Assembly (NCBI GenBank): GCA_030390025.1
Contig: CM059431.1
Span: forward strand, 95,606,001-95,670,000
Reading direction: 5' to 3'
Origin: Squalus acanthias
Lineage: Eukaryota
DNA length: 64,000 nt
This document shows, one piece after another, positions 3,801 to 50,321 of this stretch (position 1 is its first letter; every line of letters starts with the position of its first letter). Position numbers and translations under genes: made by a program. The notes beneath the pieces are model-generated. The model was not told where the DNA came from, ran no database searches, and saw only the letters and a program-made list of their open reading frames with translations.

Positions 3801-3935
3801 CTGAAGTCTCCTGCACGGAAACTCAGCAACATTCCATCAGTCATGCTGCAGCTATTGCGGGAGCACTACGTAGGAGCACCAGAGCAGGAAATGGCACACA
3901 ATGACAGGCACTAAGGGATTGCACAAGGGTGATTA
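802..3935 (+). pseudogene. H1 Myb/SANT-like gene, three exons, split by CR1 and frameshifted
   Basis: PREKARGF (802-838) joins FSNEALETLV...MWRKVA...QCSKKFNDLTRVVR (2100-2306); GT-AG introns 2307-2532 and 2704-2859; C-terminal AVLSQDDSIP motif shared with the other copies. Confidence 0.8.
841..2100 (+). mobile_element. 5'-truncated CR1 (RT and 3' UTR)
   Basis: YLDFQKAF, GVPQGSVLGP and KFADDTK RT motifs; (TTCTATGT)n tail. Confidence 0.95.
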
Positions 3936-4079
3936 GTTAATATTCTTATAATATGTGTGATATGTTTATAGATAAATTTATTAATTGTGTTTGGAATCTT
4001 TTGTGGTGTCTTTTATTTCACCTTTGTGCCCAGCAGGACGCTGTGATACACCATGAGATAGGGATTGTATGATGGGGAT

Positions 4080-4981
4080 GTGGTGAGCTACGGGGATCTG
4101 GGGTTTAATTCATGCGAATCGGAGTCTGATGAGCCGGTCATGGACAGCCCGTCCGGAAGGCCAATTGTCTCGCTGCCTTGGCCCTCCCTCCCGTTCCTCT
4201 TCCTCCTTGTACTCTCCCTCCTCACCCTCCTCCTCCTAACCCTCGTTCTCCTTCTGAGGTGGTCCCGCAATCCCTGGTGGCAAGGACTATGCCCTCATGA
4301 TGGCCAAGTTGTGGAGCATGCAGCAGACCACGACGAAATGGGACACCCGCTCAGCTGAGTACTGGAGGGCTCCGCCCGAGCGGTCAAGGCAGCGGAACTG
4401 TTGCTTCAGTAAGCCGATGGTCTGCTGTTATACGGTGCCCACAAAGCCAGGTGGGTTCAGTTGATGGTGCCCTGCACCATGGGGAAGCCCGCTATCCTGG
4501 CAAAGTCACGTGCATGCTTGTCCTGCTTCTCTCTGGTGATCGGGAAGCCAATATAATCCCTTCTCCTGCTGTAGAGAGCCTCAGTGATCTCCTGGATGCA
4601 ACGATCGATTGCAAACTGTGAGATGTTAGCTATGCCTCCTGCTGCAGACTGGAAAAATCCACTGGCAAAGAAATTGAGGACCACGGTGACCTTGATTGCC
4701 ACTGGGAGGGCTGTGGTCACCCTGGTCTGAGGCTGGATGTCTGGTTGCAGGAGGTGGCAGATTTCTGTGACCACCTCCTTGGTGAAGTGAAGCCTCCTAA
4801 TACACTGCTCCTCGCTTAATTGAAGGTCGGTGATGTAATGTCGGAAGACCCTAGGAGGGTAAGGCCTCCTGTTGACAGCCCTGATGGCCCTCCTCCTCCC
4901 TCTGCGCACATGTTCCCATATTTCTCGCTGCCTCCGCCGTAGATGCTGAAGGGCGAGGTTGATTGCCAGTACAGCCCCCAT
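4080..4981 (-). pseudogene. H1 Harbinger DDE transposase with internal deletion
   Basis: MGAVLAINL...YPPRVFR...IAGFPMVQGTIN jumps near 4440 to QTIGLLKQQFRCLD; the middle of the catalytic domain is missing. Confidence 0.85.
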
Positions 4982-15141: not shown

Positions 15142-15587
15142 TGTAATGCTGACATTGAAAAGGGGACATCTACCTTTGGAAATCATGAATGGTGAGTGAC
15201 AGTTTAAAACATAGTTCAGCACCTATGGACTAGAATTATACTGTATAAACAGTCTACCTCATTATGTGAGCATGCAATAGAAGAAGTAAAAAGTGGTGAA
15301 TATATTGGACATCCTGGAAAGATGTATGTTACACATCTTGGGGAGTTAAGGGTTAACAGTTGAACTTCTTTGTAACTTAAAACAACAGGCTTTCCAAGAT
15401 ATGAACAGGATGTCAGTAATGAAACATAGCTTTAGTTTTAGGGTAATAAAACGGGTTATCAAATCCATTTGTGGAGAACTTGTTTAATTTAAGTAGTTCT
15501 GGAGTAAACAAACTACAACTGTTTACATCAATAGTCTGGTTTCAAAGGATTTGGGGAATAGATACGTCGTACAGTCTTATCTATGAC
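15142..15587 (+). repeat. 3' LTR, 5' part (start uncertain)
   Basis: Clear similarity to the 5' LTR from ~15305; TGTAATGCTGAC at 15142 resembles the first LTR start. Confidence 0.65.
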
Positions 15588-16500
15588 CTGAAAAGAGTCA
15601 GCTTCAGAGGCGGCAGAGAATAAGGAGAGCGCAAGGCCGAGGCAGTGCGGACCTGAAAGGAGTCGGCATCGGAGGAAGCAGCGAACCAAGAGAGCGGCAG
15701 GCCGAGGCAGCGCGGACCTGAAAGGAGTCAGCACCGAGGAGGCAGAGAATAAATAGAGCGGGACCCGAGGACAGTGCAGACCTGAGCAGTGGCAGCACCG
15801 AGGAGGCAGAGAATAAATAGAGCGGGACCAGAGGACAGTGCGGACCTGAGCGGCAGCACCGGGGAGGCAGAGAATAAATAGAGCGGGACCCGAGGACAGT
15901 GCGGACCTGAAAGGAGTCGGCACCGAGGAGGCAGAGAATAAATAGAGCGGGACCCGAGGACAGTGCGGACCTGAGCAGTGGCAGCACCGAGGAGGCAGAG
16001 AATAAATAGAGCGGGACCCGAGGACAGTGCGGACCTGAGCAGTGGCAGCACCGAGGAGGCAGAGAATAAATAGAGCGGGACCCGAGGACAGTGCGGACCT
16101 GAGCGCTGACAGCACCGAGGAGGCAGAGAATAAATAGACTGGGACCCGAGGACAGTGCGGACCTGAGCGGCAGCACCGGGGAGGCAGAGAATAAATAGAG
16201 CGGGACCCGAGGACAGTGCGGACCTGAGCGGCAGCACCGGGGAGGCAGAGAATAAATAGAGCGGGACCGGAGGACAGTGCGGACCTGAGCGGCAGCACCG
16301 AGGAGGCAGAGAATAAACAGAGCGGGACCCGAGGACAGTGCGGACCTGAGCAGTGGCAGCACCGAGGAGGCAGAGAATAAATAGAGCGGGACCCGAGGAC
16401 AGTGCGGACCTGAGCAGTGGCAGCACCGAGGAGGCAGAGAATAAACAGAGCGGGACCCGAGGACAGTGCGGACCTGAGCAGTTGCAGCACCGAGGAGGCA
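15588..16500 (+). repeat. Tandem array of 60/63-bp GC-rich units at the CR1 5' end
   Basis: About 12 conserved copies of GAGGCAGAGAATAAATAGAGCGGGACCCGAGGACAGTGCGGACCTGAGC(AGT)GGCAGCACCGAG plus ~2 degenerate copies. Confidence 0.97.
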
Positions 16501-19500
16501 GTACATGTCCAACGCATTCTAAAACAACAGCAAAAAAACAAGGAGTGACATCATAGGAAAGCAGGTAGATGATTGGTGGACGTTTCCTGTGCCCTGGACA
16601 ACCAAATGTGCAGGAAGTGTCATCAGCTGGAGGAGCTCGAGCCCCGGGTTTTGGAGCTTCAGTAGCTGCTGGCGTCACTGCGGTGCATCCGTGAGGCTGA
16701 GAGTTTGTGGATAGCACATTTCAGGAGGTGGTCACCCTGCAGTGTAAGAGTGTACAGGCAGATAGAGAATGGGCGACCGCCAGACAGACAAGGAGGACCA
16801 GACAGGGAGTGCAGGAGTCCCCTGAGTGCATCTCATTCAGTTCTAAATACTGGTGAGGGCGATGGTTCCTCTGGGGAGTACAGCCAGAGCCAAGTCCACA
16901 GCACCATGGGTGGCTCAGCTGTACAGCGGGGGAGGAGGACGTTCAGGAAAGCAATAGTATTAGGGGATTCAATAGTTAGGGGAATAGACAGGTGTTTCTG
17001 CGGCTGCAGAAGTGATTCCAGGATGGTATGTTGCCTCCCTGGTGCCAGGGTCAAGGATGTCACTGAGCAGCTGCAGGACATTCTGAGGGAGGAGGGTGAA
17101 CAGCCAGAGGTTGTGGTCCATATCGGCATCAACGACATAGGCAGAAAGAGGGACGAAGTCCTGCAAGCTGATTTTAAGGAGCTCGGAAAAAGATTACTAA
17201 GCAGGACATCAAACGTCTCTGGATTACTCCCATTGCCACAAGCTACTGAGTATAGAAATAGGGGGCTAGAGCAGATGAATGTGTGGCTGGAGAGATGGTG
17301 CAGGAGGGAGGGTTTTAGATTCCTGGGACATTAGGACCGGTTCTGGGGGAGGTGGGACCTGTAAAGGCCAGACGGGTTGCTCCTCAACAGAGCCGGGACC
17401 AATATCCTCGCGGGGGTCGGGGGGGGTTGGGGGGGGGGGCGGGGGGCGGGATTTGCAAGTGCTGTTGGGGAGGGTTTAAACTAATTTGGCAGGGGGGTGG
17501 GCACCAGGTGGTAGCATTAGAAAGGAGAAACAAGGTACACAAAGGATTGGGAGAGAGAGATAGCACTAGAGTAAGAAATAGTAAGGTATTAGGTGGGGTC
17601 AGACTAGAGCACAAGAAGGTCTAAGATAGGTTTACAAGGCATGTGTGTAAACGCACAAAGCATGGTAAGGTTGGTGAGCTGCAGGCGCAAATAGCCACAT
17701 GGGAATATGATGATGTGGCGATAACGGAGACCTGGCTCAAAAAAGGGCAGGATTGGGTTTTAAATATTCCTGGATATAAGGTGTTCAGGAAAGATAGCGA
17801 AGGAAAGAAAGGAGGTGGGGTGGCAGTATTGATTAAGGAGCATGTTACAGTGTTGGAGAGAGAGAATGTCCTGGAGGGGTCAAGGACAGAATCTATTTGG
17901 TTAGAGTTAAGAAACAATAGAGGTCCCATTACACTACTAGGTGTATTCTATAGGCCACCAACTAGTGGGAAGGATATGAGAAGCAAATTTGCAGGGAAAT
18001 TACAGAGAAGTGCAAGAAGTATAGAGTAGTGATAATGGGGGGCTTCAACTATCCAAATATAGACTGGGATGGTAATAGCGTAAAGGGCAGAGAGGGGGAA
18101 GAATTTCTTAAGTGTGTTCAGGAGAACTTTCTTGATCAGTACGTTTCCAGCCCAATGAGGAAGGAGGCATTGCTGGATCTAGTTCTGGGGAATGAGGTGG
18201 GGAAAGTGGAGCAAGTGTCAGTAGGGGAACATTTAGTGAATAGTGATCATAGTATCATAAGGTTTAGATTAGCTATGGAAAAGGACAGGGAGAAATCTAG
18301 AGTAAAAATACTTAATTGGAGGAAGGCCACTTTCAGTGGGTTGAGAACGGATCTGGCTCAGGTAAATTGGAATCAAAGATTGGCAGGCAAAACAGTAATC
18401 GAACAAGAGGAGATGGTTCGGGAACAGTTGAGGTACATTCCCACGAGGGGGAAAGGTAGGGCAACCAAAGTCAGAGCTCCCTGGATGATGAAAGTGTTAG
18501 AGAGTAAGATGAAGCAGAAAAAGAGGGTTGAGAATGCAAGTGAGAATCAGGCTGAATATAGAAAGTTCAGAGGGGAAGTGTAAAAGGAAAAAAGAGGGGC
18601 AAAGACAGAGCATTAGTATACATTGGCAGCTAACATAAAGTGGAATCCGAAAGTCTTCTATATAAATAATAAACAGGTATTAAGAGGAGGGGTGGGGCCA
18701 ATTAGGGACCAAAAAGGAGACCTATGCATGGAGGCAGAGGGTATGGCTGAGGTACTAAATGAGTACCTTGCATCTGTCTTCACCAAGTAAGAAGATGCTG
18801 CGAAAGTCATAGTGAAAGAGGAGGTAGTTGAGATACTGGATGGGATAAAAATTGATAAAGAGAAGGTACTGGAAAGGCTGGATGTAAAAGTAGATAAGCC
18901 ATCAGGACCGGATGGGATGCATCCTAGGATGTTGAGGGAAATAAAGGTGGAAGTTGCGGAGGTACTAGCCATCATCTTCCAATCTTCCTTAGATACGGGG
19001 GTGGTGCCAGAGGATTGAAAAATTGCAAATGTTACACCCTTGATCAACAAAGGGTGTAAAGATAAACCCAGCAACTACAGGCCAGTCGGTTTAACCTTGG
19101 TAGTGGGGAAGCTTTTAGAAACGATAATCTGGGGCAAAATTAACAATCACTTGGACAAGTGTGGATTAATTAAGGAAAGCCAGCACAGAGTTGTTAAAAG
19201 CAAATCATGTTTAACTAACTTTATTGAGTATTTTGATGAGGTAACAGAGAGGGTTGATGAGGGCAATGTAGTTGATGTGGTGTACATGTGCTTCCAAAAG
19301 GCATTTGATAAAATGCCACATAATAGGCTTGCCAGCAAAGTTGAAGCCCATGGAATAAAAGGGACAGTGGCAGCATGGATACGAAATCGGCTAAGTGACA
19401 GGAAACAGAGAGTAGTGGTGAACGGTTGATTTTCAGACTGGAGGAAGGTACACAGTGGTGTTCCCCAGGGGTTGTTAGTAAGACCACTGCTTTTCTTGCT

Positions 19501-28864: not shown

Positions 28865-31800
28865 GGGGGTGAAACTGGGTATTGCTCCATTTGGAGTGCT
28901 AACTTTTGAGAATTTGAAAATTTAGTGCCAGGCGCTAAGGATTCTGAATTTCTACTAAATTGGGTGTTAGCGCCCCAGGAAGGAAGTGGGGCGCTAAATC
29001 AAGCGCTAATGACCTCAGTGGGGCGCTACAGGGGCGCTACCAGCAGAGCGCTAATGAATTTCAGGTGCATTGCATTCAGCAATGATCCTTCACACTGGTT
29101 CCTTCCAGCTCTTAAATGGAAGGTTGCATCATTGTGCAGATGCTTATTTTCATCATTGCTGGCTTTGAGGCGACCTGCGAGCAAGTGAATCCCCTAATGG
29201 CTACGGCTGTTCCCACTCCCAGGGAGAGAGCTCGTCGGTTCACAGACGTGGCATTGGAGGCATTGGTGGCTGGAGTGGAGCGAAGGAGGGCAATGCTGTT
29301 CCCAGCCACTGGAAGGAGGCCATCGCCTCAGGTCTTCAGGGCAATGTGGAGGGAAGTGGCCCAGGAGGTCTCAGCCAGTAGTGTGGTGGAATACAGCCTG
29401 ACACAGTGCCGCAAAAATTCAATGACCTCAGTCGGGTGGTCAATGCTTCAACAGCTCCTACATACCAGCATCTGAACCTCAGTCTGTGCACACTGCGCAA
29501 AGAACCACACCCCCACCACTCACTCACCAAACATCTTCACCTACTCAAACCCACATCCACATCTCACACCTTGCCTACAATCACAGCTATTCAACGATGG
29601 TAGGCATATCTCCCAAACACATAGCTGGAGTCTGACTCAATCACATTTGTTTCTCTTGCAGGCCAAGATGGCCCACAATAGGAGGGAGCAGCAGAGAACA
29701 GGTGGGGGTGATGCGCAGCTCCAGCAGCTCTCAGACCTGGAGGAGCGAGTGCTGCGACTCATTGGGCAGCAGGTGGTGGGCACCATGGCCGTCGGCGACG
29801 TCAACCCCGTTGGGAGCAAAAACGGTATCTTCAGCCCCTCTCCTTCTCTCATCCCACTTCCCCCTCACACCACAAGCCTTTCCCACTTTCCACCTCCTGA
29901 GAATGTCTGCATTCCTTGCTCCATTCCTGCCCCCCTGCCCTCACCTTAACGTGAGTGTTGTGCCTTTATGCTTTCAGATAATCAGCAACCAGATGACCAG
30001 CCTGTCCCTGAGCCTCCCACTGAGAGTGAGGAAGGAGAAGAGGAGGAGGAGCAAAGCACTGCGTCACTGCATCTCTCACCCGCAGGCACCACCTGGAATT
30101 CTCTACCCAAGAGGGTTGTGGACGCTCAGTCGTTGAGTATATTCAAGATAGAGATCGATAGATTTTTGAATATTAAGGGATTCAAGGGATATGGGGATAG
30201 TGCAGGAAAGTGGAGATGAGGTAGAAGATCAGCCATGATCTTATTGAATGGCGGAGCAGGCTCGAAGGGCCAAATGGCCTACTCCTGCTCCTATTTCTTA
30301 TGTTCTTATATTCTTATACTGGCACCACGCAACCTTTAGAGGCAACTTTAGTAGAGGGGTCGGCACAGGGTGATGCACCGGGGATGAGTGGGCTGCAGCA
30401 AGGCCAGGGGGAAAGGATAGCTCAGGAGCCAGCTCCCCGGAGGGCGGGTTCGCGCGCAACTTCTGCTGCACAGGACTCAGATAAGGACCTCGATGGGGAG
30501 GCATTCACAAGGAGGGTGATGGGCACGCACTCCGAGATGATAAGTGCAATGGCAAAGGTACCCGAGAGCCTCTCGGCAGTGGTAAGGAGCGTGGAGGAGT
30601 CCACCTCCTACATTGCACAGAGCTCTGCGCGCAACATGGAGCCCATCATTTCCACTGTGTAGAGGATAGTGGACTCCCAGAGAGACCGTGTGGATCCAGA
30701 CCTCATGACACGTGTCACGGGCGATGTGGCAGCTTCCATTGCAGCACAGGCAGAAGCGACGCAACATCTTAGTGCTGTAATGCAGTCAATGGTTGCTGCC
30801 ATCAAGTCTCAGACTGCTTTTATGCAGTCTCAGCTTGACGCCACGAAAGCTCTGACTGCTGCCATCGTCGCTGGGTCCACCACAGTCCACCGGGGATCTC
30901 ACGGTGTTGCAGCAGGCCAGCTGAGGTGCTGCCGTGGGAGTGAGAGTGGGTCAGTGGAGCAGGAACCTGCTGTCCTCTCTCAGGATGACAGCATTCCTGA
31001 TCCCACCGCTGGCACTCTGCCATTGCCCTTGTCGCTGCCTGTCATCCTGCCAGCCCAGACTGCTGCCGCCCAGCCTGAGGTGGCGCAGTCTACAGCCGAG
31101 CCTTCCAGGCCCAGAGATGGTCGTGGGCGTGCTGCAAGGCCATCTGTAGTGTCTGGCACCGACACTCAGCAGCCTTCCACCAGCCCTGCTGCAGCCACTG
31201 GGGAGACACTACGTAGGAGCAGTAGATTAAGAAAGGGGACTGTAAAGATGGGAGGCAAGGGTTTGCACAAGGGTGATTAGTCAATATTGTTGTTGTACAT
31301 ATGTGGTTAATGGTTTTTGATAAATTTATTCGTGAAATGTTGCAGTTCTGGTGCTGTGTCTCATTTCAGTTCTGGGGTGTGGTATGGAACCACAAAGTGA
31401 TGGAATGATGGCTACGTGCTCAGCAACCAGAAAGAGGACTCGAAGTCACTGGAAACGAAGTCTGATGAGGTGGCCACGGACCGACCTTGCAGAACGCCGA
31501 TTGAGTGGCTGCCTCCTCCGTCGCTGCTGTTTGTCCTCCTGCTCCTCCTGTTCCTCTTCTTCCTCCTCCTCCTCATCTCCCTCTTCCTCCTCCTGAGGTG
31601 CTGCGGCTATGCCTGGTGGCAATGTCTGCGCCCTCATAGTGGCCAAGTTGTGCAGCATGGAGCAAACGAGGAGGAAAAGTGACACCTGCTCAGCCGAGTA
31701 CTGGAGGGCTCCTCCCGAGCGGTCGAGGCAGCAGAACCGTTGCTTGAGCACTCCAATGGTCTGCTCAATGATGTTCTTGGTGGCAGCATGGCTCTCATTA

Positions 31801-32609
31801 TATGAGTGCTGGGCATGAGAGTTGGGCTTGCAGAGGGGAATCATGAGCCAGGTGGAGAGTGGATAGCCCTTGTCCCCAACAGCCAGCTGCAAGCTTCATG
31901 TGGTGGCTGGAACAGATCTGGCACACCGGTCTGGCGCAGGATGAAGGCATTGTGGCTGCTGCCAGTATAGTGGGCTTTGACGGTTAGGATTTGCCATGTA
32001 TGGTCGTACACCAACTGCACATTAAGTGAGTGGTAGCCTATGCAGTTACGGAATACCTCAGGATTGTTATGCAATGCCCGCAAAGCGACGTGGGTGCAGT
32101 CAATGGCGCCCTGCACCATGGGGAAGCTCGCTATCCTGGCAAAGCCACAAGCACGCTTGCGCTGCTTCTCTCTGGTCATGGAGAAGGAAATGTAGTCCCT
32201 TCTCCTTCTGTACAAAGCATCTGTGACCTGGCGGATGGAGCAATGGACGGCAAACTGGGAGATGTTGGAGATGTCGCCTGTTACACACTGGAAGGATCCG
32301 CTGGCGTAGAAATTGAGGGCGACGTTGACCTTGACTGCCACTGAGAGAGCCGTGGTGGTCCTAATCTCAGGCTCGAGGTCTGGCTGCAGGAGGTGGCAGA
32401 GCTCTGTGACCATGTCCTTGCTGAAACGGAGCCTTCTAACACACTGGTCCTTAGTGAAATTCATGTAGGGGAACTGCTGCCGGTGGGTAAAGCCTCCTGT
32501 TGAGAGCCCTGTTGGCCCTCCTACCTCCGGCCACATTTTGCACTCTTTCTCTGTGCCTCAGTTGCCTCCCACGTTGACCGGAGGCACAAAGGAGCCCAAT
32601 TTCTAGCCC
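28865..32609. mobile_element. Degenerate Harbinger H2 (Myb +, 29197-31280; transposase -, 31446-32575)
   Basis: Imperfect TIRs GGGGGTGAAACTGGG and CCCAATTTCTAGCCC; flanks AGA/ATA; RFTDVALEAL...QCRK, GAIDCTHV, GDKGY and IEQTIG motifs with frameshifts. Confidence 0.88.
30091..30317 (+). mobile_element. Short CR1 3' end inserted in H2 Myb exon 3
   Basis: WNSLPKRVVDA, CR1 3' UTR and TTCTTATG tail. Confidence 0.9.
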
Positions 32610-34937: not shown

Positions 34938-35832
34938 GGGGGAGAAATTCGGTATCGCCCCATTTGGGGCGCAATTATCGGCCGGGCGCAAAGATTAGCG
35001 CCTGGCGCTAATTATCGCCTCCGACTGCAAACTTGACTTTTATCGCCCCTGGAGGTGATTGGAGCGCTAAATCAGGCGCTTCACACCTGTCTTAAGGCGC
35101 AAAGGTCGAGGAGCGAGGCGCTACCTCAGAGCGCTGGTGAAGCTCATGTGATGTCAGTCAGCAATGGAACACACACACAATGGCGCGGGCCAGTTCTTAA
35201 AGGGGAGGGTTGATCTTGCTTTCCATCCACATCCTGCTCATTGCAGCCTTGAATCTCGGCCTGGAGAGACCTGTACATCAAATCTGCTGGAAAGAACAAT
35301 GGAGAGTACCAGGGAAAGAGCTCAGAGTGCAGCCCCCACAGTCTCTTCTAAATCGACACAAGGAAGGGCAAATCAAAATGAACCTGCAAAGTGCTGCTCA
35401 GTACCCAAAACTCCTTCACACAGCGTTGAATCTCTCCAGAAGTCTCTCTCTCTCTCTCTCTCAGAATGCGTGGTTCAAAAATGTCACCAACAATAAAAGG
35501 CAGGAAGCAGTCGCCTTTAAATAGCGCTCCCCAAGTCCCTTCCTGACTGCAAAACGCTCCCCTCAACCTGTCGTTGCTAGCGGCAGGCGGTAAGGCAGGG
35601 GGCGCCACTCAATATCCGCTCTGGGGCGATACCGGGGCGTTGCGCACTTGACTGACGTCACGATCTGCCGGCGCAGGAGATCGTGGCGGTAGTCTTTAGC
35701 GCCGCCGCGAAATGTCTAGTTAATTTCACGAGCGGCGCAAACATCGCCGCGCCTGGGCGCTAGCTGCTTTGCGCCCCATTAGTGCCCTCTTAAGGCACTA
35801 ACGGGAGGCGCAACCAACTGAATGTTTCCCCC
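34938..35832 (+). mobile_element. Non-autonomous Harbinger N1 (895 bp)
   Basis: TIRs GGGGGAGAAATTC and GAATGTTTCCCCC; ATT duplicated on both sides; ends homologous to H3; retains the Myb start MESTRERA. Confidence 0.92.
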
Positions 35833-36230
35833 ATTATATCCTAATACCTTTTCTCCAAAAGCTAGAGATATGGGCAGCTTTCTCATTGCCTCACCGGTGT
35901 GGCACTGAGCCATAAAGACCAGAAAGGTTCTGGGCTCAATCCTCATTCCGCTACATTAGCTGGGGAATCAGGAGCACTACAACTACCTTAGCATCCAAGG
36001 GCTAGTTGGGAGACATAGGCCCTGATATTTACTGGGGCCGGTTTTGGTCGGTGCGTGGAGTTTTAACTCCATGGCGTACGTGTTCTTTTTAAAACAGATT
36101 CCCCACACAGAAGCCAAGCTTATTGACAGGCTTGGCTGCCTGTTGGGTGGGGAACACTCCAGAAAAGGCCGCAGCCCAGGAGCAGGTAGGTGTAGTGGAT
36201 GTTTGAGGTAGAGATTACTGGGGGGGGTGG

Positions 36231-37693: not shown

Positions 37694-39999
37694 TACAGCG
37701 TGGTTGGGTGGGTTGGGGGTGATCGCGTGGGGGGTGCGGATTGAAGATCCCAGGAAAATCGGGGCGTGTCGGGGGAAGATCATGGAGGTGAGGGGTATTT
37801 ATAGCTTAGCTTGTTGGGACTGGGAGAAGTGCTCCTGCTCCTCCTGGCCCAGAAGCAGTGATGTAAATACACTTACTGATGGATCCAGCCCTTCTCGCCT
37901 CCTTTCATCTGCCGGGTTTCTCAAGGCCCGGGAAACCCGGCCGACATAGATTAGTAATAGAAATCCTGTTAAACTGAATGCATGCAGCCTCTTTAAAAGG
38001 TTTCAATGACCGACCCATCACCTGCGGGCGGATTGGTCACCTGCCCCTTGTCCCGCCTCCATTAAAACCAGAAGTGGGCGGGTTTAGATTCTAGAATGGT
38101 GTAACACCGCTATTCAAGAAAGGAGGGAGAGAGAAAACAGGGAACAACAGGCCAGTTAGCCTGACATCAGACATCGGGAAAATGCTGGAATCCATTGTTA
38201 AGAAAGTGGTATCAGGGCATTTAGAAATCATAACATGATTAGACAGAGACAACATGGTTTTATGAAAAGGAAATCGTGTTTGACAAATTTATTAGAGTTG
38301 TTTGAGGATGTAACGAGTAGGATAGATAAAGGGGAACCAATGGATGTAGTATATTTGGATTTCCAAAAGGCATTCGATATGGTGCCACATAAAAGGTTAT
38401 TAAACAATATTAGGGCTCAAGGGGTTGGGGGTAATATCATAGCATGGATAGAGGATTGGTTAATGGACAGAAAACAGAGAGTAGGGATAAGTGGATCTTT
38501 TTCAGGTTGGCAGGCTGTAACTAGTGGGGTGCCGCAAGGATCAGTGTTGGGGCCTCAGCTATTTACAATCTATATTAATGACCTAGATGAAGGGACCGAG
38601 TGTAATGTATCCAAGTTTGCTGATGATACAAAGCTAGGTGGGACAGTAAACTGTGAGGAGAACACAAAGAGTCTGCAAAGGGATATAGATAGACTAAGTG
38701 AGTGGGCAGTAAGGTGGCAGATGGAGTATAATGTAGGGAAATGTGAGGTTATACACTTTGGTAGGAAGAATAGAAAAACAGAATATTTTTTAAATGGTGA
38801 GAAACTTTCAAATGTTGGTGTTCAGAGAGATTTGGGTGTCCTCGTGCAAGAAACACAGAAAGCTAGCGTGCAGGTACAGCAAGCAATAACGAAGGCAAAT
38901 AGCATGCTGGCCTTTATTGCAAAGCGGTTGGAGTATAAGAGTAAGGAAGTCTTGCTACAATTGTACAGGGCCTTGCTGAGACCACACCTGGGGTACAGTG
39001 CACAGTTTTGGTCTCCTTATCTAAGAAAGGATATACTTGCCTTGGAGTCGGTGCAACAAAGGTTCACCAGATTGATTCCTGGGATGAGAGGGCTGTCCTA
39101 TGATGAGAGATTGCGTAGAATGGGCCTATAATCTCTGGAGTTTAGAAGAATGAGAGGTGATCTCATTGAAACATATAAGATTCTGAAGGGGATTGACAGG
39201 GTAGATGCTGAGAGGTTGTTTCCCCTGGCTGGAGTGTCTAGAACTAGAGGACATGGGGGAAAAATTCGGTTGCTTTGCGCCTCCCATTAGCGCCCTAACA
39301 GGGCGTTAATGGGGCGCAAAGCAACTAGTGCCCGGGTGCGGCGATGTTTGCACGCTCGTGAAATTGACCAGACATTTTGCGGTGGCACTAACTACTACCG
39401 CCACGATCTCCTGCGCCTGCAGATCGTGACGTCAGTCGAGCGTGCAATGCCCCGGTAGCGCCCTGGACCGGATATTGAGTGGCGTCCCCTGCCTTACCGC
39501 CTGCCGCTAGCAACGACAGGTTGAGGGGAATGTTTTGCAGTTGGGAAAGGACTGGGGGAGCGCTATTTAAAGGCGACCGCTTCCTGCCTTTTTTTGTCGG
39601 CGACATTTTTGCACCACACATTCTGAGAGAGAGAGAGAGAGGGGTAAAAATTAGGTCGCGCCCCATTTGGGGCGCAAATATCATCTGGACGCAAATATTA
39701 GCGCCTGGCGCTAATTATCGGCACTGACTGGAAACTTCACTTTTACCGCCCCGGGAGGTGAGTGGAGCGCTAAATCAGGCGCTGCACACCTGTCTTAAGG
39801 CGCAAAGGCCTAGGAGTGAGGCGCTAACTCAGCGCGCGAGCGCAGCGCAGGTGCTGCCAGTTAGCGAGGGAACACAGACACACTGGCGCCGGACACTTCT
39901 TAAAGCGGGGGGGGCCAACTTGCTCCCCAGCCACACCCTGCTCATTGCAGCCTTGAATCTCGGCCTGGAGAGACCTGTGAATCCATTTTGCTGCCAAGC

Positions 40000-41854
40000 A
40001 TGGAGAGGGTGAGAGAACGCGCTCATCGCTTCACCGAGCGGGCCTTGGATGCTCTGGTTGGCGCGGTGGAGCGCAGAAGATGTATGCTCTTCCCTGAGAG
40101 TGGCAGGAGGCCTTTGCCACGCGAGTTCAGAAGAGTGTGGAGGGAGGTGGCTCAGAGCGTCTCCTCCAGGAGCATGGTGCCCAGGACCCATACTCAATGC
40201 CGCAAAAAGTTCAACGACCTCACTCGGGTCGTCAGGGTGAGTGGCTTTTTCTCAATACCTCTCCATCCCTCCATCTCAACCTCACTCTATGGCCAGAGGG
40301 TCTTAAAACCCCAATGCACAACACTCATCCAACACCTATGGCCCTTTCATGAAACACACACACACATTCCACACTTTGCATACAGTAAAGGCTATTCACC
40401 TATGGGAGGCACATCAGGCAAGACCATGGCTGCATACAGTAAGGGCTATTCACCTATGGGAGGCACATCAGGCAAGACCATGGCTGCATACAGTAAGGGC
40501 TATTCACCTATGGGAGGCACATCAGGCAAGACCATGGCTGTATATTTACTCAGATGCTGTCCTTTTTCTTACAGGCCAAGCTGGCGCATAATCGGAGACA
40601 GCAGCAACGGACAGGTGGAGGGCGGCCTCAGCTGCAACCCCTCAGCGATCTTGAGGAGCGCGTCCACAGCATTGTGGCAAGCCGGGTGATCGGTCCCGTC
40701 GCCACTGGAGACGCCGACCCCGTTCTGGACAGCAATGGTAAGGTCATCACCTTTTTGTCCTCTGTCCTTCCACTTGTCCCTCACAACACCAGCCTTTGAC
40801 ACTTTCAATCCAACTTGCTAACTCGCTGCACTTATCCCTCCCTTACTGCCACCCTGTCCTCACGCTAAAGCCACTCTTGTACCTCCCTGCTTTCAGATGG
40901 TGATTCACCAGCTGAGGAGACGGGCCCTGAAGCTGCCACTGGGAGGAAGAGGAAGCCGGAGCATCAGTGCCACCCTCTCCCGAGGAAGCCCATGCCCACA
41001 CTGGGAACACGCCTTCCCTGGAGGGGAGCAGGGGCGAAGGGTCTGATAAGGGTGAAGCTCCAGGACCCAGCGGGCTGCAGCAACGCCATGGGGGTAGGGA
41101 AGAACGGGGGCCTTCTCCCCAGAGGGAGAGTATGCCAGACACTCCTACTGCAATGGACGCAGAGGAGGAGCGGCTGATCGCAGAAATGAACACCCAGGCG
41201 GTGGGCATGCACACTGAGCTCATGGGTGCAGTGGGAAGGGTGCCCGAATGCATTGAGTCACTGGCAAGGAGTGTGGAGCACTTTGCTGTAGCACAGGCGG
41301 ATGCCACACTAACGCTTAGTGCTGCAATTCAGTCACTGGCTGCCGTGATCCCATCTCTGACTGCTCTCATGCAGACTCAGATTGAGGCCACGCGAGCACA
41401 GACTGCTGCCAACCTCGATGGTTCGTGCACATGTCCCCGGGGCTGTCACCGCGCCGCAGCAGGCCAGCAATCTGTTCTCCAGCAGATTGCTCCGGATGCT
41501 GAAGTGCTGCCCCGTGGGAGTGCCAGTGTGTCGGGCGAGCAGGGAGTTGCTGTCCTCTCTCACGATGACAGCATTCCTGCTGCCAACACTGTCACTTCTC
41601 CACTGCACTTGCCACCGCCTGTAGGACAGACTGCTGCCGCCCATGCAGAGTTGGTGCAGTCTGCAGCCGGGCCCTCCAGGCCCAGAACTGGTCGAGGCCG
41701 TCCTTCAGGGGCATCTGCAGTGTCAGGGTCTGACGAGCAGCAGCCTTCCACCAGCCTTGCTACAGCCACTGAGGTCCCATTACGGAGGAGCAGTAGGGTT
41801 AGAAGGGGGGAAGTGCGCAAGGGAAGGAGATCACCCTCGAAGGGCAAAAAGTAG
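40000..41854 (+). CDS. H3 Myb/SANT-like protein (exons 40000-40236, 40575-40737, 40897-41854; one apparent frameshift near 40942)
   Basis: RFTERALDALV...VWREVA...QCRKKFNDL, then KLAHNRRQQQRTGGG; GT-AG introns in the same positions as in H1. Confidence 0.85.
40378..40539 (+). repeat. 54-bp tandem triplication in H3 Myb intron 1
   Basis: GCATACAGTAA(A/G)GGCTATTCACCTATGGGAGGCACATCAGGCAAGACCATGGCT three times. Confidence 0.97.
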
Positions 41855-42148
41855 GAGGTGTGACAAAATGCTGGTCATTTTTTTATTAAAGGTCGAGGTT
41901 CATGGTCCAACTTTTGTTTAGTGTTTTGGACATTATCTCCAGGTTGTGAGAACCAGTTATGTTATTGACTGTTTTTTTGTGTTTATTTCTATGAGTTTGT
42001 CATGAGGAATTGACACACACAGAGTTTGTAAAATAAATAAGTTTCTGTATTCAAAATATACATGGTTGGTGGTTGGAATTATTGGTGCCTTGGCCGGCTT
42101 AGGGGTTGCGTGCTGGGTTCATTAATGTTGGTAGCAATGGCAGGGGCC

Positions 42149-43231
42149 CTAGAAGCGGCTTGCTATTAGCCGTTGACGGACGGCCCTTGCAGTTTGACCA
42201 TTGTGGGCCGCCCTCCGGCCTTGGTGCTGCTGATGATCATCCTCCTCGTCCTCTTCCTCCTCTTCCTCCTCCTCCTCTGGTGGTGCTCCAAGGCCTGGTG
42301 GCATTGGCTGGGTCCTGAGGATTGCCATGTTATGCAACATGCAGCACACGACTACGAAGTTCGATACTCGCTCAGGCGAGTACTGCAGGGCTCCTCCGGA
42401 ATGGTCGAGACAGTGGAACCGTTGCTTCAGCACGCCGATTGTGCGCTCAATTATGTTCCTGGTAGCTTGATGGCTCTCATTGTACCGCAGCTCAGCAGGG
42501 GTGTTGAGTGTACGGAGCGGTGTCATCAGCCAGGTGCTCAATGCATACCCCTTGTCCCCGAGAAGGCAACCAACTGGCTGATGCGGTGCCTCGAAAAGTT
42601 CTGCCACAGTAGTCTGGCGCAGGATAAAAGCATCGTGGTAGCTGCCAGGATACTGGGCATTGACAGCGAGTATCAGCTGTCTGTGGTCACAGACCAACTG
42701 GACATTCAAGGAATGGAACCCCTTTCTGTTCCTGAATTCCTCGGCATTCTCATGCGGAGCACGCAAAGCCACATGCGTGCAGTCAATGGCGCCCTGCACC
42801 ATGGGGAAGCCCGCTACCCTCGCAAAGCCCAGAGCGCGGTCACGCTGCTTGTCTGGGGTCATGGGGAAAGAGATGAACTCTCGTCTCCTTTTAAAGAGGG
42901 CATTTGTGACCTGCCGGATGCAGCAATGCACCGCGAACTGGGAGATATTGGCGAGGTCCCCAGCAGCAGCTTGAAATGAGCCAGTAGCGTAAAAGTTGAG
43001 AGCCACTGTGACCTTCACTGCCACCGACAGAGACGTCCTGGACCTCAGTTGAGGCTGCAGATCTGGCTGCAGCAGGTGGCAGAGCTCAGTGACCACCTCC
43101 TTGCTGAATCGCAGCCTTCGCAAACACAGCTCCTCAGACATATGGATGTAGGAGAGCTGTTCACGATATACCCTGGGAGGGTAAGCTCTCCTGTACATAC
43201 GCCTGATGGCCCTCCTCCGTCTGGCCATCAT
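42149..43231 (-). CDS. H3 HARBI1-type DDE transposase (360 aa from the first in-frame ATG)
   Basis: Uninterrupted ORF with GAIDCTHV, NRKGFHSLNVQLVCD, PGSYHDAFIL, LGDKGY, IERTIG and CCMLHN. Confidence 0.93.
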   Translation of the reverse strand: MMARRRRAIRRMYRRAYPPRVYREQLSYIHMSEELCLRRLRFSKEVVTELCHLLQPDLQPQLRSRTSLSVAVKVTVALNFYATGSFQAAAGDLANISQFAVHCCIRQVTNALFKRRREFISFPMTPDKQRDRALGFARVAGFPMVQGAIDCTHVALRAPHENAEEFRNRKGFHSLNVQLVCDHRQLILAVNAQYPGSYHDAFILRQTTVAELFEAPHQPVGCLLGDKGYALSTWLMTPLRTLNTPAELRYNESHQATRNIIERTIGVLKQRFHCLDHSGGALQYSPERVSNFVVVCCMLHNMAILRTQPMPPGLGAPPEEEEEEEEEDEEDDHQQHQGRRAAHNGQTARAVRQRLIASRF

Positions 43232-45368
43232 GCCACTCTCTCTCTGTGTCTCTGTATCCTCCGATTCAGCTGGAGCAGGACGACGCCCCCAATCAGTGCA
43301 GCCCCCATATTCTCTTTGCAAGCAAAGTAATGAAGGACAGCAACTAAAGTACCAGCGAAGTTAGGATCAATAGGCAAAACTACCTCACAAAGCGTTGAGT
43401 CAATGTAGAACTTTCTCTTTCTCTCTCTCCGAATCTCTCTCTATCTCTCAGAACGAGTGGTGCAAAAATGTCGACCACAGAAAAAGACAGGAAGAGGCCC
43501 CCTTTAAATAGCGCTCCCCCCAGCCCCACAGCGATTGATAGCGTTCCAGTCTTCCGGTCGTTGGAAGCGCCAGGCGGTAAGGCAGGGGCCGCCACTCAAT
43601 TTCCGCTCCGGGGCGCCACAAGGGCGTTGCACCATGGAATGACGTCACAATCTGCGCGCGCAGGTGGTCGCAGCGGTAAGTTTTAGCGCCGCCGCACAAT
43701 CTGTAGTTAAGTTCCCGAGCGGCGCAAACATCGCTGCGCCCGGGCGTTAGCGGCTTTGCACCCCATTAGCGCCCTCTTAAGGCGCTAACGGGAGGCGCAA
43801 CCAACTGAATTTTTACCCCAGAGACTTCTGGAGAGATTCAACATTGTGTGAAGGAGTTTTGGGCACTGAGCAGCATTTTGCAGGTTCATTTTGATTTGAC
43901 CTTCCTTGCATCGATTTAGAAGAGACTATGGGAGCTGCACTCTGAGCTCTTTCCCTGGTACTCTCCATTGTTCTTTCCAGCAGATTTGATGTACAGGTCT
44001 CTCCAGGCCGAGATTCAAGGCTGCAATGAGCAGGGTGTGGATGGAGAGCAAGATCAACCCTCCCGTTTAAGAACTGGCCGGCGTCAGTGTGTCTGTGTTC
44101 CATTGCTGACTAACATCACATGAGCTTCGCCAGCGCTCTGAGGTAGCGCCTTGTTCCTCGGCGTTAGCGCCTTAAGAGAGGTGCGTAGTGCCTGATTTAG
44201 CGTTCCAATCACCTCCACGGGTGATAGAAGCTAAGTTTACCGTTGGAGGTGATAATTAGCGCCAGGCGCTAAACTTTGCGCCCGGCCGATAATTGCGCCC
44301 CAAACAATGCGATACCGAATTTCTCCCCCATAGTCTCAGGATAAGGCCAGTTAAGACCGAGATGAGGAGCAATTTCTTTAATCAGAGGGTTGTGAATCCT
44401 TAGAATTCTCTGCCCCAGAGGGCTGTGAATGCTGAATCTTTGAGTATATTCAAGGCTGAGATAGATAGATTTTTGGACTCTAGGGGAATCAAGGAATATG
44501 GAGATCAGGCGGGAAAGTGGAGTTGAGGTCGATGATCAGCCATGATCTTATTGAATGGCGGAGCAGGTTCGAGGGGACGTTTGGCCTACTCCTGCTCCTA
44601 TTTCTCATGTTCTTATGTTCTTAAGACAGGTTGGGTTCCTGTTTCAGATTTTTAATATTTTAACTTCCCATCCAATCCAAACCACCCATTTTTGGGGGTT
44701 AAAATGACGCCCATAAAATAGGATCCCCATTCTTGATGGCTAGTGCGTGATCCTGTGCACTTGGATGGACATCATGAGACAGGACCAGGCCTCACTATGA
44801 AGCGTCGCATAGTTAAGTAGCTCACTGACACTCACCACAGAAGGTTGTCACCTGGGGAAATGCACTCATTGGCGTATGTGTTTTTTTTTAAACAGATTCC
44901 CCACACGAAAGGCAGCCTGATTGACAGGCTTTGCTGCCTGTCAGGTGGGGAACGCTCTCGAAAAGGCCGCAGCCCAGGAGCAGGTAGGTGTAGTGATGTT
45001 GGGGGTAGAGATCGCCGGGACGTGGGTACAGCGTGGTTGGGAGGGTCGGTGCTTTAAGGAGAGACAGGGAGAAGCTTGGGAGAAAAATGAACTGCTAAAC
45101 AATGTTACCAATGTCAGAAACCCAGATTCTACTGCTGTACCCGGTCTGCAACATCTCTCAATCTCTAACCTCATCAATATGACATTGTATGACATTAAGT
45201 GTGCTAAAGAAAGATAGATGTTGGCAATGGTTCAGTGGTAGCAATCTTCCTACTGAGGCAGAGGGCTCAAGCCCCACTCCATAGATTTGAGCACACAATC
45301 TAGGCTGGCATGTCAGTGTAGTACTCACAGGATGTTGCACCTGTCTGAGCTGCTGTCTTCAAGATAAC

Positions 45369-48300
45369 AGCCCCAATCTGATCTGAGAGACACGGGGGAG
45401 GCGGTCTGATTTCGTATGGGAAACCCGGAAGTATGTTAAGCATGTCTGTCAGTGGCTTTTTAACGCAGACACCTCATTATCATTTTACTTCCAGATTTCT
45501 TATCTAATAGGAGGCAGTGGGTGTGATGAGGACTCGCATGACGCGATCTCTACTCCAGTATTTAAAGAGACAATGCAAACATGCAATTTAGAGGTGTTGG
45601 AGTTCAAGAGAAGAAAGCAGGAAGGTGAGGAATGGAAGTGAGACGTGCTAAGACTGCGCCCAGTTTCAATGATGCCTCCCTGGATTTGTTGCTGGCAGTT
45701 GTGAGGAGTCAGAAGGAGATACCATTTCCCAGAAATGGGAGGAAAAAACCTGCAGCAGAAACAAAGAAGGCGTGGTTGGAGGCTGCTGTGGAGGTAAGTA
45801 GCGGGAGCGTAGTACCAATCTCCTGGATACAGTGCAGGAAGTGGTTTAATGACCTAACCAGGTCAGGAAAGGTGAGTACAGTGGCACATTCACCTACATT
45901 CAGTGGCACATTCACCTGTGTGCATCACCCCAACCCCCTCACTCTCCCTTCTCAAGCTACTCCATCACATCACTCCTCATACCCGCTTACCTTGCAGGTG
46001 CACTCATTCCTTTCTGTTGATGCACTTCATCACATCCCCATCTCTCCATCCACCACTGACACTCTCATCCTTATGTAATTCAATGCCATTCCCTGATACT
46101 CCCCCTTGCCAAATGCACTCCATCCATCAGATGAACACATGCCATTACACTTACTCATAGGTCTGTTCTTTCTCTCCTTGCAGGAAGTGAGCACAGAACA
46201 CCAGGTAGAGACAGAAAATCGAAGGTGGCCCTCCAGGCATCTTGCAACTCACAAGTGCAGAGGAGGAGGCACTGGAGCTCATCGGAGTCTCGGCGTGCCT
46301 GGCTGTCAGAGATGGGGAGCTCCCAGCTATCTGGAGACACATTTAAATATCAGACAGCCACGTGTCATATGGCACTCAGTCATGTTGACTTGATGTCAAC
46401 AGCGAGTGAAATATGATCATGTTTATAATGAGAAGTTGCAACATTCTTACCTTGCCAGTACTCATTCATAGAATCTAGAATCATAGAAATTTATGGCACA
46501 GAAGGAGGCCATTCAGCCATCATGTCTGTGCCGGCCGGAAAAGAGCTATCCAGCCTAATCCCACTTTCCAGGTCTTGATCCGTAGCCTTGTAGGTTATGG
46601 CACTTCAAGTTCATATCTAAGTACTTTTTAAATGTGATGAGGGTCTCTGCCTCTACCACCCTTTCAGGCAGTGAGTTCCAGACCCCCACCACCCTCTGGG
46701 TGAAAAATGTTCTCCTCAAGTCCCCTCTAATTCTTCTACCAATTACTTTAAATCTATGTCCCCTGGTTATTGACCTCTCTGCTAAGGGAAATAGGTCCTT
46801 CCTATCCACTCTATCTCGGACCCTCATAATTCTATACACCTCAGTTAAGTCTCTGCTCAGCCTCCTCCATTCCAAAGAAAACAACCTGAGCATATCCAAT
46901 CATTCCTCATAGCTAAAATGCTGCAGTCCTGGAAACATCCTCGGAAATCTCCTCTGTACCCTCTCCAGTGCAATCACATCTTTCCTGTAATGAGGTGACC
47001 AGAACTGTACGCATTACTCCAGCTGTGGCCTAACTAGTGTTTTATACAGTTCAAGAATAACCTCCCTGCACTTATATTCTATGCCTCGGCTAAAAAAGGA
47101 AAGTATCCTGTATGCCTTCTTAACCACCTTATCTACCTGTCCTGCTACCTTCAGGGATCTGTGGACATGCACTCCAAGGTCCCTCTGTTCCTCTACATTT
47201 CTCAGTATCCTACCATTTATTGTGTATTCCCTTGCCTTGTTAGCCCTCCCCAAATGCATTACTCACACTTCTCCGGATTGAATTCCATTTGCCGCTTTTC
47301 TGCCCACCTGACCAGTCCATTGATAGCTTCCTGCAGTCTACAGCTATCTTCTTCACTATCAACCACACGGCCAATTTTTGTATCATCTGCAAACTTCTTA
47401 ATCATGCTCCCTACATTGAAGTCCAAATCTTTCATAAATACCACAAGAAGCAAGGGACATAGTACTGAGCCCAGCAGAACCCCACTGGAAACAGCCTTCT
47501 AGTCACAAAAACACTTGTCGACCATTACCCTTCACTTCCTGCCACTGAGCCAAATTTGGATCCAACTTTCCACTTTCCCTTGGATCTCATGGGCTTTTAC
47601 TTTTCTGGCCAGTCTGCCATGTGGGACCTTGTCAAAAGCCTTGCCAAAATCCATGTAGACTACATCAAGCGCGCTACCCTCATCGACTCTCCTCGTTACT
47701 TCCTCAAAATATTTAATTAGGTTAGTCAGGCATGATCTCCCCTTAACAAATCCATACTGACTGTCCTTGATTTATCCATGCTTTTTTAAATGATGATTAA
47801 TACCATCCCTCAAAATTTTTTCCAATAATTTGCCCACCAGTTAGGCCTGTAATTACTCGTTCTATCCTTTTTTCCTTTTTTAGACAATGGTACAATGCTA
47901 GCAGTCCTCCAGTCCTCTGGCACCACACCTGTAGCCAGAGAGGATTGGAAAATGATGGTCAGAGCCTCCACCATTTCCTTCCTTGCTTCTCTTAATAGCC
48001 TGGGATACATTTCATCCGGGTCTGGCAATTTATCTACTTTCTTGTCTTTTATCTCCCACAGGGCTTTCGCATGTGCAGCAGAAATTGATGGAAGTCACTG
48101 ATGACGATTCCTCAGAGGAGTTCAATCATTCTGAGGGTGTGCCATCACACAACTCATGCAGACCATGCACCAGCTCAGATACTCACACTTCAGTGGGACT
48201 AGTAAGGCAGATAGTAAGGCACACTTCACATGAGTAAGAGCAGATTGGGATGGCGAAGATAGCAGTGGAGAGTCAGCATTACAGGGCGCAGCTGGACACA

Positions 48301-50321
48301 AATACTGCAACCCGGGGGCCGTTGATGAATAGGTTAATCATTGAGCAGCAGCAGAAAATATGCGATGTACTGACAGGCCTTCCAAGCACACAGTCCATGA
48401 TTGCAGAGAGATTGGAGGAGTCCACCTCAAGCATAAGTGGGTTGATGTTGCACGGCACTGCGATGATGTCTTCTTGCATGGATAGACTGGCCAACTGCAT
48501 AAAGCATCAAACGTGGCAATCATACAAGTCCATGGTGGCCTTGAGCAAGGGCTTGCAGGCTCTGGATGCCAACTTAAATAGAATGACAGATACCTGAGCT
48601 TTGGCCCTGCATCATCCCACTGATCTGCAGTAAAGTGCTTTCCAGCACAATGGTAACAGTGAATTGCGGCTGGGCCATGAGAGGGATGATGGCAAAATGC
48701 CTGCTACCTATGATTGTGGGATGGGTTCATTGATGGAACCTAACTGAACCTCGCAATAACCCTGGCAGAAATGTTAGCAGCTGGTGGTGCATTGCACTCA
48801 TCACCTGCCTCCTCCTTGTCTTCCTCCTCATCCTCCAAAAAGGAACTTCGCTCTGCGCCTTGGTCCTCCTGCAGGTCCAAACCTCGCTGCTGGGCAATGT
48901 TGTGCAGAGCACAGCACACCACGACCATTATGGAGACCTTGGCTGGTGCATATTGAAGGGCACCTCAAGATCTGACGAGGCACCTGAAGCGCATCTTCAG
49001 CATGCCGATTGCTTTTTCAATGACACATCTAATGGTGATATGAAATTGATTGTAGCACTCCTGGGCCTCAGTCCTTGGTTTTCTAAGAGGTGTCATCAGC
49101 CACGTTTTGAGTGGGTATCCCTTGTCTCTGAGCAACCACCCATTAACTCTGCTTCCAGGTGTGAAGACATCAGGGAGGTTGGACTGCTGCAGGACGAAAG
49201 CATCTTGGCAGCTGCTCAGGAATCTTGCGCACACCTGCATAATGATATTTTTGTGGTTGTGCACCAGCTGCACACTGATGGAGTGGAAGCCCTTGCAGTT
49301 AACGGATACTCTGGGTGATCTGGGGGTGCCCTGATTGCCACCTGTACGCAGTCGATGATACCCTGCACCTGTGGGAAGCCAGCCAGAGATGCAAACCCGA
49401 ACGCCGCTCATTCTGACTGATGTCATTGCAGGCAAATTTGACATAATTGGCGGCCCTGGCGAACAAGCCATCTTGTTTCATGCATTTCTGGGCTGCTGTC
49501 TGGGAGATCCTGCAAATGTCTCCGGCAGAGCCCTGGAAGGATCCAGAGGCAAAAATGTTGAGGGTGGTGGTGACTACGACAGCCACTGGTCACCAGGTCC
49601 AGCTGGCAGCAGGTCTTCTTCCAGCAGGCTGCAGATGTCTGCCACCACCTGACGTGACAACCTGAGCCTCCTGAGACACTGCTGTTCCGACATGTCGAGG
49701 AAGCTTATCCTCTGCCTGTAGACCCTGTGTGGCGGGTATGGCTGCGCCTCTCTGCTGCTGCCCTCTCTGCTGCTGCCCTCTCTGCTGCTGCCCTCTCTCT
49801 TGTGCAGCTACAGGTCTGTTACCAGCAGGCTGCTACTGGTGCTGGTCATCTTGGTCCTCATCTGAGGTCCAATCTAAGACAGCGTAAGCGGCACCCCTCC
49901 TGATCTGATAGAGCAAATCGCCAAAGTGTAGAAGAAACCTCCAAAGTGTAGAAATCTATGTCAGAAAAAGTACTCTGAACATCCTTTCCGACTAGCAGGT
50001 AAAAAAGCAGCTGTGAGTACTGAGTATGCCGTGTCATATTTCCATGAGATGGATTGACCCCCTCAGTTGCTGCTGTGTTCTCGCCTTGCTTTCACAGGCG
50101 TGAATCATACATTAAGCTGAAAACATCTGTGTCAATATCACTCTAATTGAGCGATTAACATATGTTAATTGCCACCCTGCCTCTCCTGAAGGGGTTGAGC
50201 TGCAGTGAAACCTGGAAGTCGGTGGGTTGGAGCTGACTTCCCAGCATGCTGTCAGTTTCACTGGCTTTAACCCCCTACCCACTCCCAAACCCACATGATC
50301 CTCCATGTTAAAACTGCCCCC
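45369..50321. mobile_element. Degenerate Harbinger H4 (Myb +, 45632-48597; transposase -, ~48727-49898)
   Basis: APSFNDASLDLLL...KKAWLE...[33 protein letters not shown] and CCALHN; TIR-like end AAAACTGCCCCC at 50321; left TIR not seen. Confidence 0.82.
46470..48040 (-). mobile_element. CR1 fragment inside the H4 Myb intron
   Basis: RT motifs (KFADDTK) and 3' tail ATCATAGAAT. Confidence 0.92.

Follow-up and report, generated by a model that had tools for sequence, protein, structure and literature searches.

The element and its ends

The stretch of Squalus acanthias DNA analysed here (64,000 nucleotides, hereafter the window) contains a Harbinger element of 4,179 bp at 39641-43819, whose boundaries were confirmed. 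It carries two convergent genes, one for a Myb/SANT protein on the plus strand and one for a DDE transposase on the minus strand. Its TIRs (left, 39641..39652, plus strand; right, 43808..43819, minus strand) are 12 bp long and start with GGGG, and so are of the short kind, starting with G or A, that characterises PHIS / PIF-Harbinger elements. An earlier, sequence-only reading of this DNA called the TIRs perfect. This is correct for the 12 bp, beyond which the two ends mostly mismatch.

The same reading proposed an AGA target duplication, and AGA does stand on both sides of the element (39638..39640 and 43820..43822, both on the plus strand). The insertion site is a (GA)n tract belonging to an older non-autonomous relative, N2; the left flank ends after eight GA units and the right flank opens AGAGA. 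At the matching position the tract is unbroken both in N1, another copy of that relative, and in the empty-site contigs of sequencing runs X15 and X18. The break in phase relative to these signifies a duplication of odd length, with which 1, 3 or 5 bp are equally compatible.

Repeats of GCGC(T/A)AA are clustered just inside the TIRs, six of them at 39672..39827 on the left and four at 43683..43788 on the right, and are candidate binding sites for the Myb protein. Almost all matches to the motif in the window (33 of 36) are at Harbinger ends, those of the older relatives Ha and Hb included. The element's ends have 10 where shuffled sequence has 0.6 (0 of 1,000 shuffles), a test biased by the choice of the motif from the same ends, and its recurrence at the ends of Ha and Hb is the fairer support. 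The CpG richness of the ends, also pointed out earlier, is real (o/e 0.85 and 1.14 in the terminal 300-bp blocks vs 0.39 for the window). However, it is no greater than that of N1 and N2 (0.87-1.09), and the right end of Ha is equally rich. CpG richness was accordingly rejected as a sign of youth; because the N1 and N2 ends are equally CpG-rich, it cannot date this copy.

Three further features accompany the genes. Intron 1 of the Myb/SANT gene has a 54-bp unit (family D16) present three times at 40377..40544 on the plus strand, the repeats being 97-98% identical. The AT-rich spacer between the genes (41855..42148) contains AATAAA at 42032 on the plus strand and at 41882 and 41982 on the minus strand, which probably serve as poly(A) signals. 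Upstream of the transposase gene, in 43503..43647 on the minus strand, are a TATA-like octamer (43503) and a TGACGTCA palindrome (43640). Both recur in N1, N2 and Ha and may be part of the transposase promoter.

The Myb/SANT gene

The Myb/SANT gene has three exons on the plus strand (40000..40236, 40575..40737 and 40897..41854) bounded by GT-AG splice sites. Exon 1 starts with ATG, encodes a trihelix domain that matches PF13873 (E 6.1e-09) and PF13837 (E 1.4e-06), both above the cut-off, and ends at a GT donor. Exons 1 and 2 together align with the shark Myb protein P0121 at 44% over 129 aa. The element thus has the separate second gene with a Myb/SANT domain that is expected of PHIS / PIF-Harbinger elements.

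The exons and canonical splice sites of the sequence-only reading stand, but the spliced product does not remain open. The spliced CDS is 1,358 nt, which is not a multiple of 3, and translation would stop after 226 aa, at 41175-41177. The frame set by the spliced start is not that of the last 307 codons of exon 3. This out-of-frame part nevertheless matches the paralog Hb at 41% and the C-terminal half of P0121 at 34%. The frame is lost at 40941..40945, where other copies have 19 additional bases; with these restored the CDS is 1,377 nt, or 459 codons, giving a frame of 458 aa. The 19-base insertion is bridged by a single X18 contig which passes over the site, and the same kind of extra letters is found in loose contig ends there (15 from X1 and 2 from X15). 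To judge from its sequence against that of the other copies, the Myb gene is broken by a frameshift in this copy. Exon 3 is also 45 codons shorter than in Ha and Hb; this was rejected as a lesion, an X15 contig spanning 41141-41307 without a gap.

The transposase gene

The transposase gene occupies 42149..43308 on the minus strand. Within it 403 codons can be read as a DDE frame without a stop, and PF13359 is matched from end to end (E 5.6e-38, profile positions 1-158 of 158). The catalytic residues, numbered in this stop-to-stop frame, are D193 (42784), D269 (42556) and E305 (42448), and at each site the element has the residue that is commonest in homologues (95 of 116, 90 of 112 and 79 of 115, respectively). 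With this DDE_Tnp_4-type transposase and its D, D and E, together with the Myb/SANT profiles in exon 1, the earlier assignment to the Harbinger superfamily with a two-gene anatomy is confirmed.

The catalytic frame had been described as unbroken, which is true of its 403 codons. However, its first possible start is codon 44, and MGAAL, which opens at 43308, is read in a different frame that stops after 26 codons. That MGAAL is the authentic start is suggested by N2, which retains it, and by Ha, in which the corresponding MGAVL is in frame with the catalytic part. Among fetched homologues 6 of 12 begin MGA or MGV, and by a stricter pattern 9 of the 23 that have an RRPY-like motif have a start of this type upstream. 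The two frames are separated at 43230..43231 on the minus strand, where contigs of other copies (4 from X1, 1 from X15 and 2 from X18) have one additional base. This form accounts for 25% of the depth in X1, 54% in X15 and 100% in X18 at a site beside a microsatellite, and the incomplete shares in X1 and X15 are a weak point of the comparison. On this comparison with other copies the transposase is severed from its conserved start by a missing base.

The catalytic frame is open from an ATG at 43231 that overlaps the early stop, and reinitiation there could yield a product of 360 aa with all three catalytic residues. Such a product would lack the first 26 residues, which come from the N-terminal end reported as the binding region for the Myb partner (PMC9392472). 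The copy also has substitutions on either side of the second catalytic Asp. Residue 265 (42566) is Cys here; of 114 homologues 109 have Trp, as does all of the depth in X1, X15 and X18. Residue 273 is Ala here and Pro in most homologues. With both genes frameshifted, and private changes beside a catalytic Asp, the element is not near-intact in the functional sense that the sequence-only reading gave it. For Han et al. (2015) a potentially active autonomous element has two intact ORFs, and here there is one frameshift per gene.

The nearest proteins are from elasmobranchs. Among the 120 homologues listed, 116 carry the name of a shark or ray; the best of them reaches 66%, the 8,000 best candidates having been scored, and three from other vertebrates are at 45-49%. 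By its homologues the window would thus be elasmobranch-like. A search of the full protein library found no relative closer than the elasmobranch ones, and a sequence search of solved structures with the transposase gave no match. Sharks and rays have several short-branch clades of Harbinger-derived transposases in common; in a quick tree, in which its placement has no starred support, the element's protein belongs to none of them.

A nest of insertions

The element is the innermost member of a nest. The outer layer is a LINE fragment (38101..44620, plus strand, presumably CR1-like) with an RT frame at 38202-39131 that matches PF00078 (E 7.5e-24). It is split between 39254 and 44330 by N2, and N2 is in turn split by the element into a 3′ part (39255..39640) and a 5′ part (43820..44329, retaining the five MGAAL codons), both on the minus strand. 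Contigs with an empty N2 site continue the LINE directly across it, as loose ends in 33 X1 and 10 X18 contigs. No further insertion was found within the element, and the earlier view that it is the last insertion of its nest is borne out, the order being LINE, then N2, then element.

N1 (34938..35832, plus strand) is an 895-bp non-autonomous copy with an ATT/ATT duplication. N1 and N2 are 895-896 bp long and share 90% identity; of the two genes each has kept no more than a stub of the start. Both had been taken as matching partners of the element, a claim that has to be given up: their identity to the element's ends is only 76-82%, by which they are deletion derivatives of a sister family and not of the element's own. 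Their TIR resembles the element's and the GCGC(T/A)AA motif is common to both, and cross-mobilisation of N1 and N2 with the element's family is possible.

Besides the element, the window has at least five related Harbinger insertions, among them the older relatives Ha, Hb and Hc. Neither end of Hc, nor the left end of Ha, could be located with confidence. The dN/dS of the element is about 0.23 against Hb and about 0.25 against Ha, as expected for lineages which were active after their split.

The target site and group assignment

The six bases beyond the duplications were compared with the half-site consensus of zebrafish Harbinger3_DR quoted in PMC3016246. In a sample of only 9 flanks from 5 insertions, with the left end of Hb assigned by eye, they agree at 32 of 54 positions vs 15.9 for random sequence (P 2e-5). 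With two flanks set aside, the shifted one of N2 and the one in the microsatellite, they agree at 24 of 42 vs 12.4 (P 2e-4). The N1 flanks fit weakly, at 2 of 6 positions each. By these scores the insertions have the extended palindromic target of the NuwaI / Harbinger3_DR type.

The triplets are another matter. The duplications are AGA/AGA for the element (in its microsatellite, where 1, 3 or 5 bp fit), ATT/ATT for N1 and AGA/ATA for Hb, while N2 has AT alone in common with the empty LINE site (AT-/ATA). Among the PHIS groups, PMC4482050 gives TWA (PIF/Harbinger), CWG (NuwaI), C|TNA|G (NuwaII) and ANT (Pangu). TWA, which defines PIF/Harbinger in the narrow sense of Han et al. (2015), was found at none of the four two-ended insertions on either strand, and CWG likewise at none of the four; C|TNA|G does not fit, and ANT fits N1 only. 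A new PHIS group cannot be founded on as few as four insertions. A 2-bp AT duplication of the ISL2EU kind, which N2 might suggest, was rejected in view of the ATT/ATT of N1 and the Myb/SANT second gene, and ISL2EU itself because there is no match to THAP or YqaJ and the second gene is Myb/SANT.

Family size, divergence and age

The family is a very large one. From about 55% of DNA run X1, 61,465 contigs match the 5.3-kb stretch, a tally which signifies a high-copy family and is not a copy number (summed contig depth was not used as one either). By identity 10,557 are at >=99%, 22,467 at 95-99% and 28,441 at 90-95%. Divergence was measured on the listed deep contig pieces that lie inside the element; two others, one from X15 and one from X1, fall outside it and were excluded. 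The element differs from the X15 pieces (organism A) at 22 of 1,674 bases, or 1.3%, and from the X18 pieces (organism B) at 28 of 1,675, or 1.7%; 40 of the 237 substitution rows were listed. Seven X1 pieces inside the element, which are the longest and are shallower variants, differ at 53 of 754 bases.

The mutation rate reported for the epaulette shark is 7e-10 per base per generation (CI 1.4-14.1e-10; PMC10587355). At this rate 1.3-1.7% corresponds to about 2e7 generations, and to 1e7 at the upper rate, a crude estimate since the rate is that of another species, and faster CpG decay and possible subfamily differences would, like it, lower the age. Part of the 1.3-1.7% may be due to subfamily difference rather than decay. 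The estimate is nevertheless far from the present day, and divergence of this order in sharks is not recent.

Between 52 and 84% of the element's words are present in 19 runs from 12 studies with organism labels A-H (one row is unlabelled), and in one run with label E there are none. Contigs or reads were compared for labels A, B and J only, and C-H are not counted as species. Organism B has both the host LINE and the N family in common with the element's genome, and organism J is nearly without the element's family (71 of 10,085,944 reads matched). One scan of metagenome contigs with the pattern of the element's right end gave 0 matches.

Four runs are guessed to be RNA, and their coverage of the element is not counted as expression. 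Pieces from two of them pass through both introns unspliced, and no GT-AG intron joint, as a spliced Myb transcript would give, is among the 15 of 84 joints listed. The divergence from the majority form, the sharing of the family with a second organism and the lack of a spliced transcript among the listed rows speak against the earlier suggestion of a recently active family.

Besides the two lesions, the listed deep contigs have a single coding indel, one base missing from an X15 contig at 43001, and both genes seem to be open in the majority form. For this reason reconstruction of the family from a consensus of its many copies, as was foreseen in the sequence-only reading, is plausible.

What the copy is and how it may have come about

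The element is probably a full-length, disabled copy of an autonomous two-gene elasmobranch Harbinger of the PHIS superfamily, from a high-copy family whose main spread is old. By analogy with Harbinger3_DR, the Myb/SANT protein would have bound the repeated subterminal motifs and brought the DDE transposase to the nucleus; together the two proteins would have excised the element and integrated it at a palindromic target, duplicating 3 bp. In this instance the target would have been the (GA)n tract of N2, whose right side provides a matching half-site. Neutral decay would then have followed. Comparison with other copies shows the 19-bp deletion in Myb exon 3, the loss of the base that kept the transposase in frame with its start, and point changes, Trp265Cys among them. 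If an intact helper exists, the copy could still be mobilised in trans.

It is unlikely, if still to be reckoned with, that this copy is dead while intact masters of the family are moving today. The copies are very numerous, 10,557 of the 61,465 X1 contigs are >=99% alike, the listed deep contigs are free of any shared coding indel other than the two lesions (the gap at 43001 being in one X15 contig), and both genes have coverage in the runs that may be RNA. In Harbinger-Snek, moreover, intact vertebrate copies are reported to persist amid many broken ones (PMC8437027). However, the other 50,908 X1 contigs are <99% alike, the pieces of the RNA-guess runs are unspliced, with no GT-AG among the 15 of 84 joints listed, and the majority forms of organisms A and B lie about equally far from the element (1.3% and 1.7%), which fits a spread that predates the split of A and B. 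The contigs are short, and intact identical copies elsewhere lie beyond their resolution.

The fuller proposal is a doubtful one, namely that the family has intact mobile masters in living sharks, a 15-bp palindromic target like that of Harbinger3_DR and an A-K-W duplication outside the six PHIS groups. If true, vertebrates would have a Harbinger that either is active by nature or can readily be rebuilt, and whose long target is distinct; it would offer a site-preferring tool and a route to how a two-protein complex reads DNA.

Recent horizontal transfer, which would explain near-identical copies under eight organism labels and is in line with the near absence of the family from organism J, is very improbable. 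Of labels A-H only A and B were compared, and B, having the LINE and the N family as well, is a close relative; the labels may cover gut or faeces runs. Ha, Hb and Hc, all older relatives, lie in this window too, and elasmobranchs supply the nearest proteins, other named vertebrates being at 49% or below.

Even less probable is that the copy is functional, the lesions being either assembly errors or bypassed by splicing to a downstream acceptor and reinitiation at the ATG at 43231. The D, D and E are all there, the base lost from the transposase lay in a 2-base run, and 8 downstream in-frame AGs in exon 3 could restore the Myb frame by splicing, of which the data support none. The lesions were read from the assembly against other copies, and assembly error keeps a small residual probability. 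However, a 19-base loss between short direct repeats seems unlike the usual sequencing error, it is the exon 3 acceptor at 40897 that Ha and Hb have conserved, and reinitiation would forfeit the 26 N-terminal residues at the end which the Myb protein is reported to bind (PMC9392472). The Trp265Cys and Pro273Ala changes next to the second catalytic Asp would remain. A domesticated gene pair like HARBI1/NAIF1, of which the short-branch clades common to sharks and rays might be a reminder, can practically be dismissed, given the TIRs, the duplication, the MITE-in-LINE site, the high copy number, the frameshifts in both genes and the position of the transposase outside all those clades.

Comparison with known elements

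A close parallel to the disabled copy is the zebrafish Harbinger3_DR/Harbinger3N_DR system (Sinzelle et al. 2008, as cited in PMC3016246, PMC2836001, PMC9710019 and PMC9392472). It too has genes for a DDE transposase and a Myb/SANT protein, a repeated subterminal motif and an extended palindromic target, whose half-site the element's flanks resemble, and its revival likewise needs a consensus. Its duplication is of 3 bp, one of the lengths that fit the AGA here. It differs in its triplet, CWG as against AGA, ATT and ATA-like ones here; the comparison is one of described features. For both Harbinger3_DR and mPing the two proteins are reported to be required, with the Myb protein binding subterminal motifs and importing the transposase (PMC2836001, PMC9710019, PMC9392472).

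Harbinger-Snek of sea kraits (PMC8437027) is likewise a high-copy vertebrate two-gene Harbinger with many broken or non-autonomous copies. For Snek, intact copies (1 and 269 in two assemblies), RNA reads from each gene and an origin by horizontal transfer are on record, which goes beyond what the present family shows. The PHIS elements described by Han et al. (2015; PMC4482050) share the DDE and Myb/SANT ORFs and the short G-starting TIR, and the element's 4,179 bp is near their PIF/Harbinger mean of 4,124 bp. The nearest single proteins, P0001 for the transposase ('putative nuclease HARBI1', elasmobranch, 66%) and P0121 for the Myb halves ('myb-related transcription factor, partner of profilin-like', 44% and 34%), are from families different from the element's; their names are automatic gene labels that do not mention transposons.

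A search of the largely open literature found no description of an elasmobranch Harbinger family. The element's family may already stand in a supplementary repeat table of some shark genome paper, and one such paper places Harbinger, at the superfamily level, among the commonest DNA transposons (PMC12498223).

Should an intact or rebuilt version prove mobile, vertebrates would gain another two-component transposon, one that prefers a long target. As for this copy, it is a cautionary case, in that a 'near-intact, CpG-rich' element may be old and dead in slowly mutating sharks. A 2022 survey of fishes (PMC9179366), in which the elephant shark was reported to lack Harbinger, called for further cartilaginous fishes to be looked at; the present window shows a high-copy family and at least five related insertions besides the element.

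Relics and shared sequences of the Harbinger copies

Three other two-gene Harbinger copies in the window, at about 2100–5485 (Ha), 28865–32609 (Hb) and 45641–49738 (Hc), are relics damaged by stops, frameshifts and LINE insertions, and all three have the orientation of the disabled full-length element at 39641–43819. Their transposases are about 40–66% identical to that of the element, and they are older than it.

The palindrome TGACGTCA occurs in the window at 5303 (Ha), 35653 and 39427 (the non-autonomous N1 and N2) and 43640 (the element); in all 4 cases it sits at that end of its Harbinger which carries the transposase. It lies past a TATA-like octamer, at a distance of about 135 bases, and the two appear to be a conserved, promoter-like pair.

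In sequencing run X1, single contigs link 39775 directly to 43482 or 43798. Their short sides are only 26–27 bases, and these junctions weakly suggest internal-deletion derivatives within the element's own family. In the element itself, intron 1 of the Myb gene contains three near-identical copies of a 54-bp unit (40377–40544).

Elsewhere in the window, a tandem array at 15585–16501 has a period of roughly 64 bp (units 85–91% alike), and the two copies of a 150-bp repeat (36066–36215 and 44864–45012; 87% identical) adjoin different LINE copies.

HARBI1-like proteins of elasmobranchs

In a tree of the listed transposase homologues, proteins named 'putative nuclease HARBI1' form several short-branch clades, each common to distant sharks, with rays also represented in two: P0006, P0011, P0012, P0014, P0017, P0019 and P0089 (clade 1); P0027, P0029, P0069 and P0092 (clade 2); P0010 and P0015 (clade 3); P0004 and P0005 (clade 4). 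These clades are candidate domesticated Harbinger transposases of elasmobranchs. The catalytic triad is degenerate in all seven rows of clade 1.
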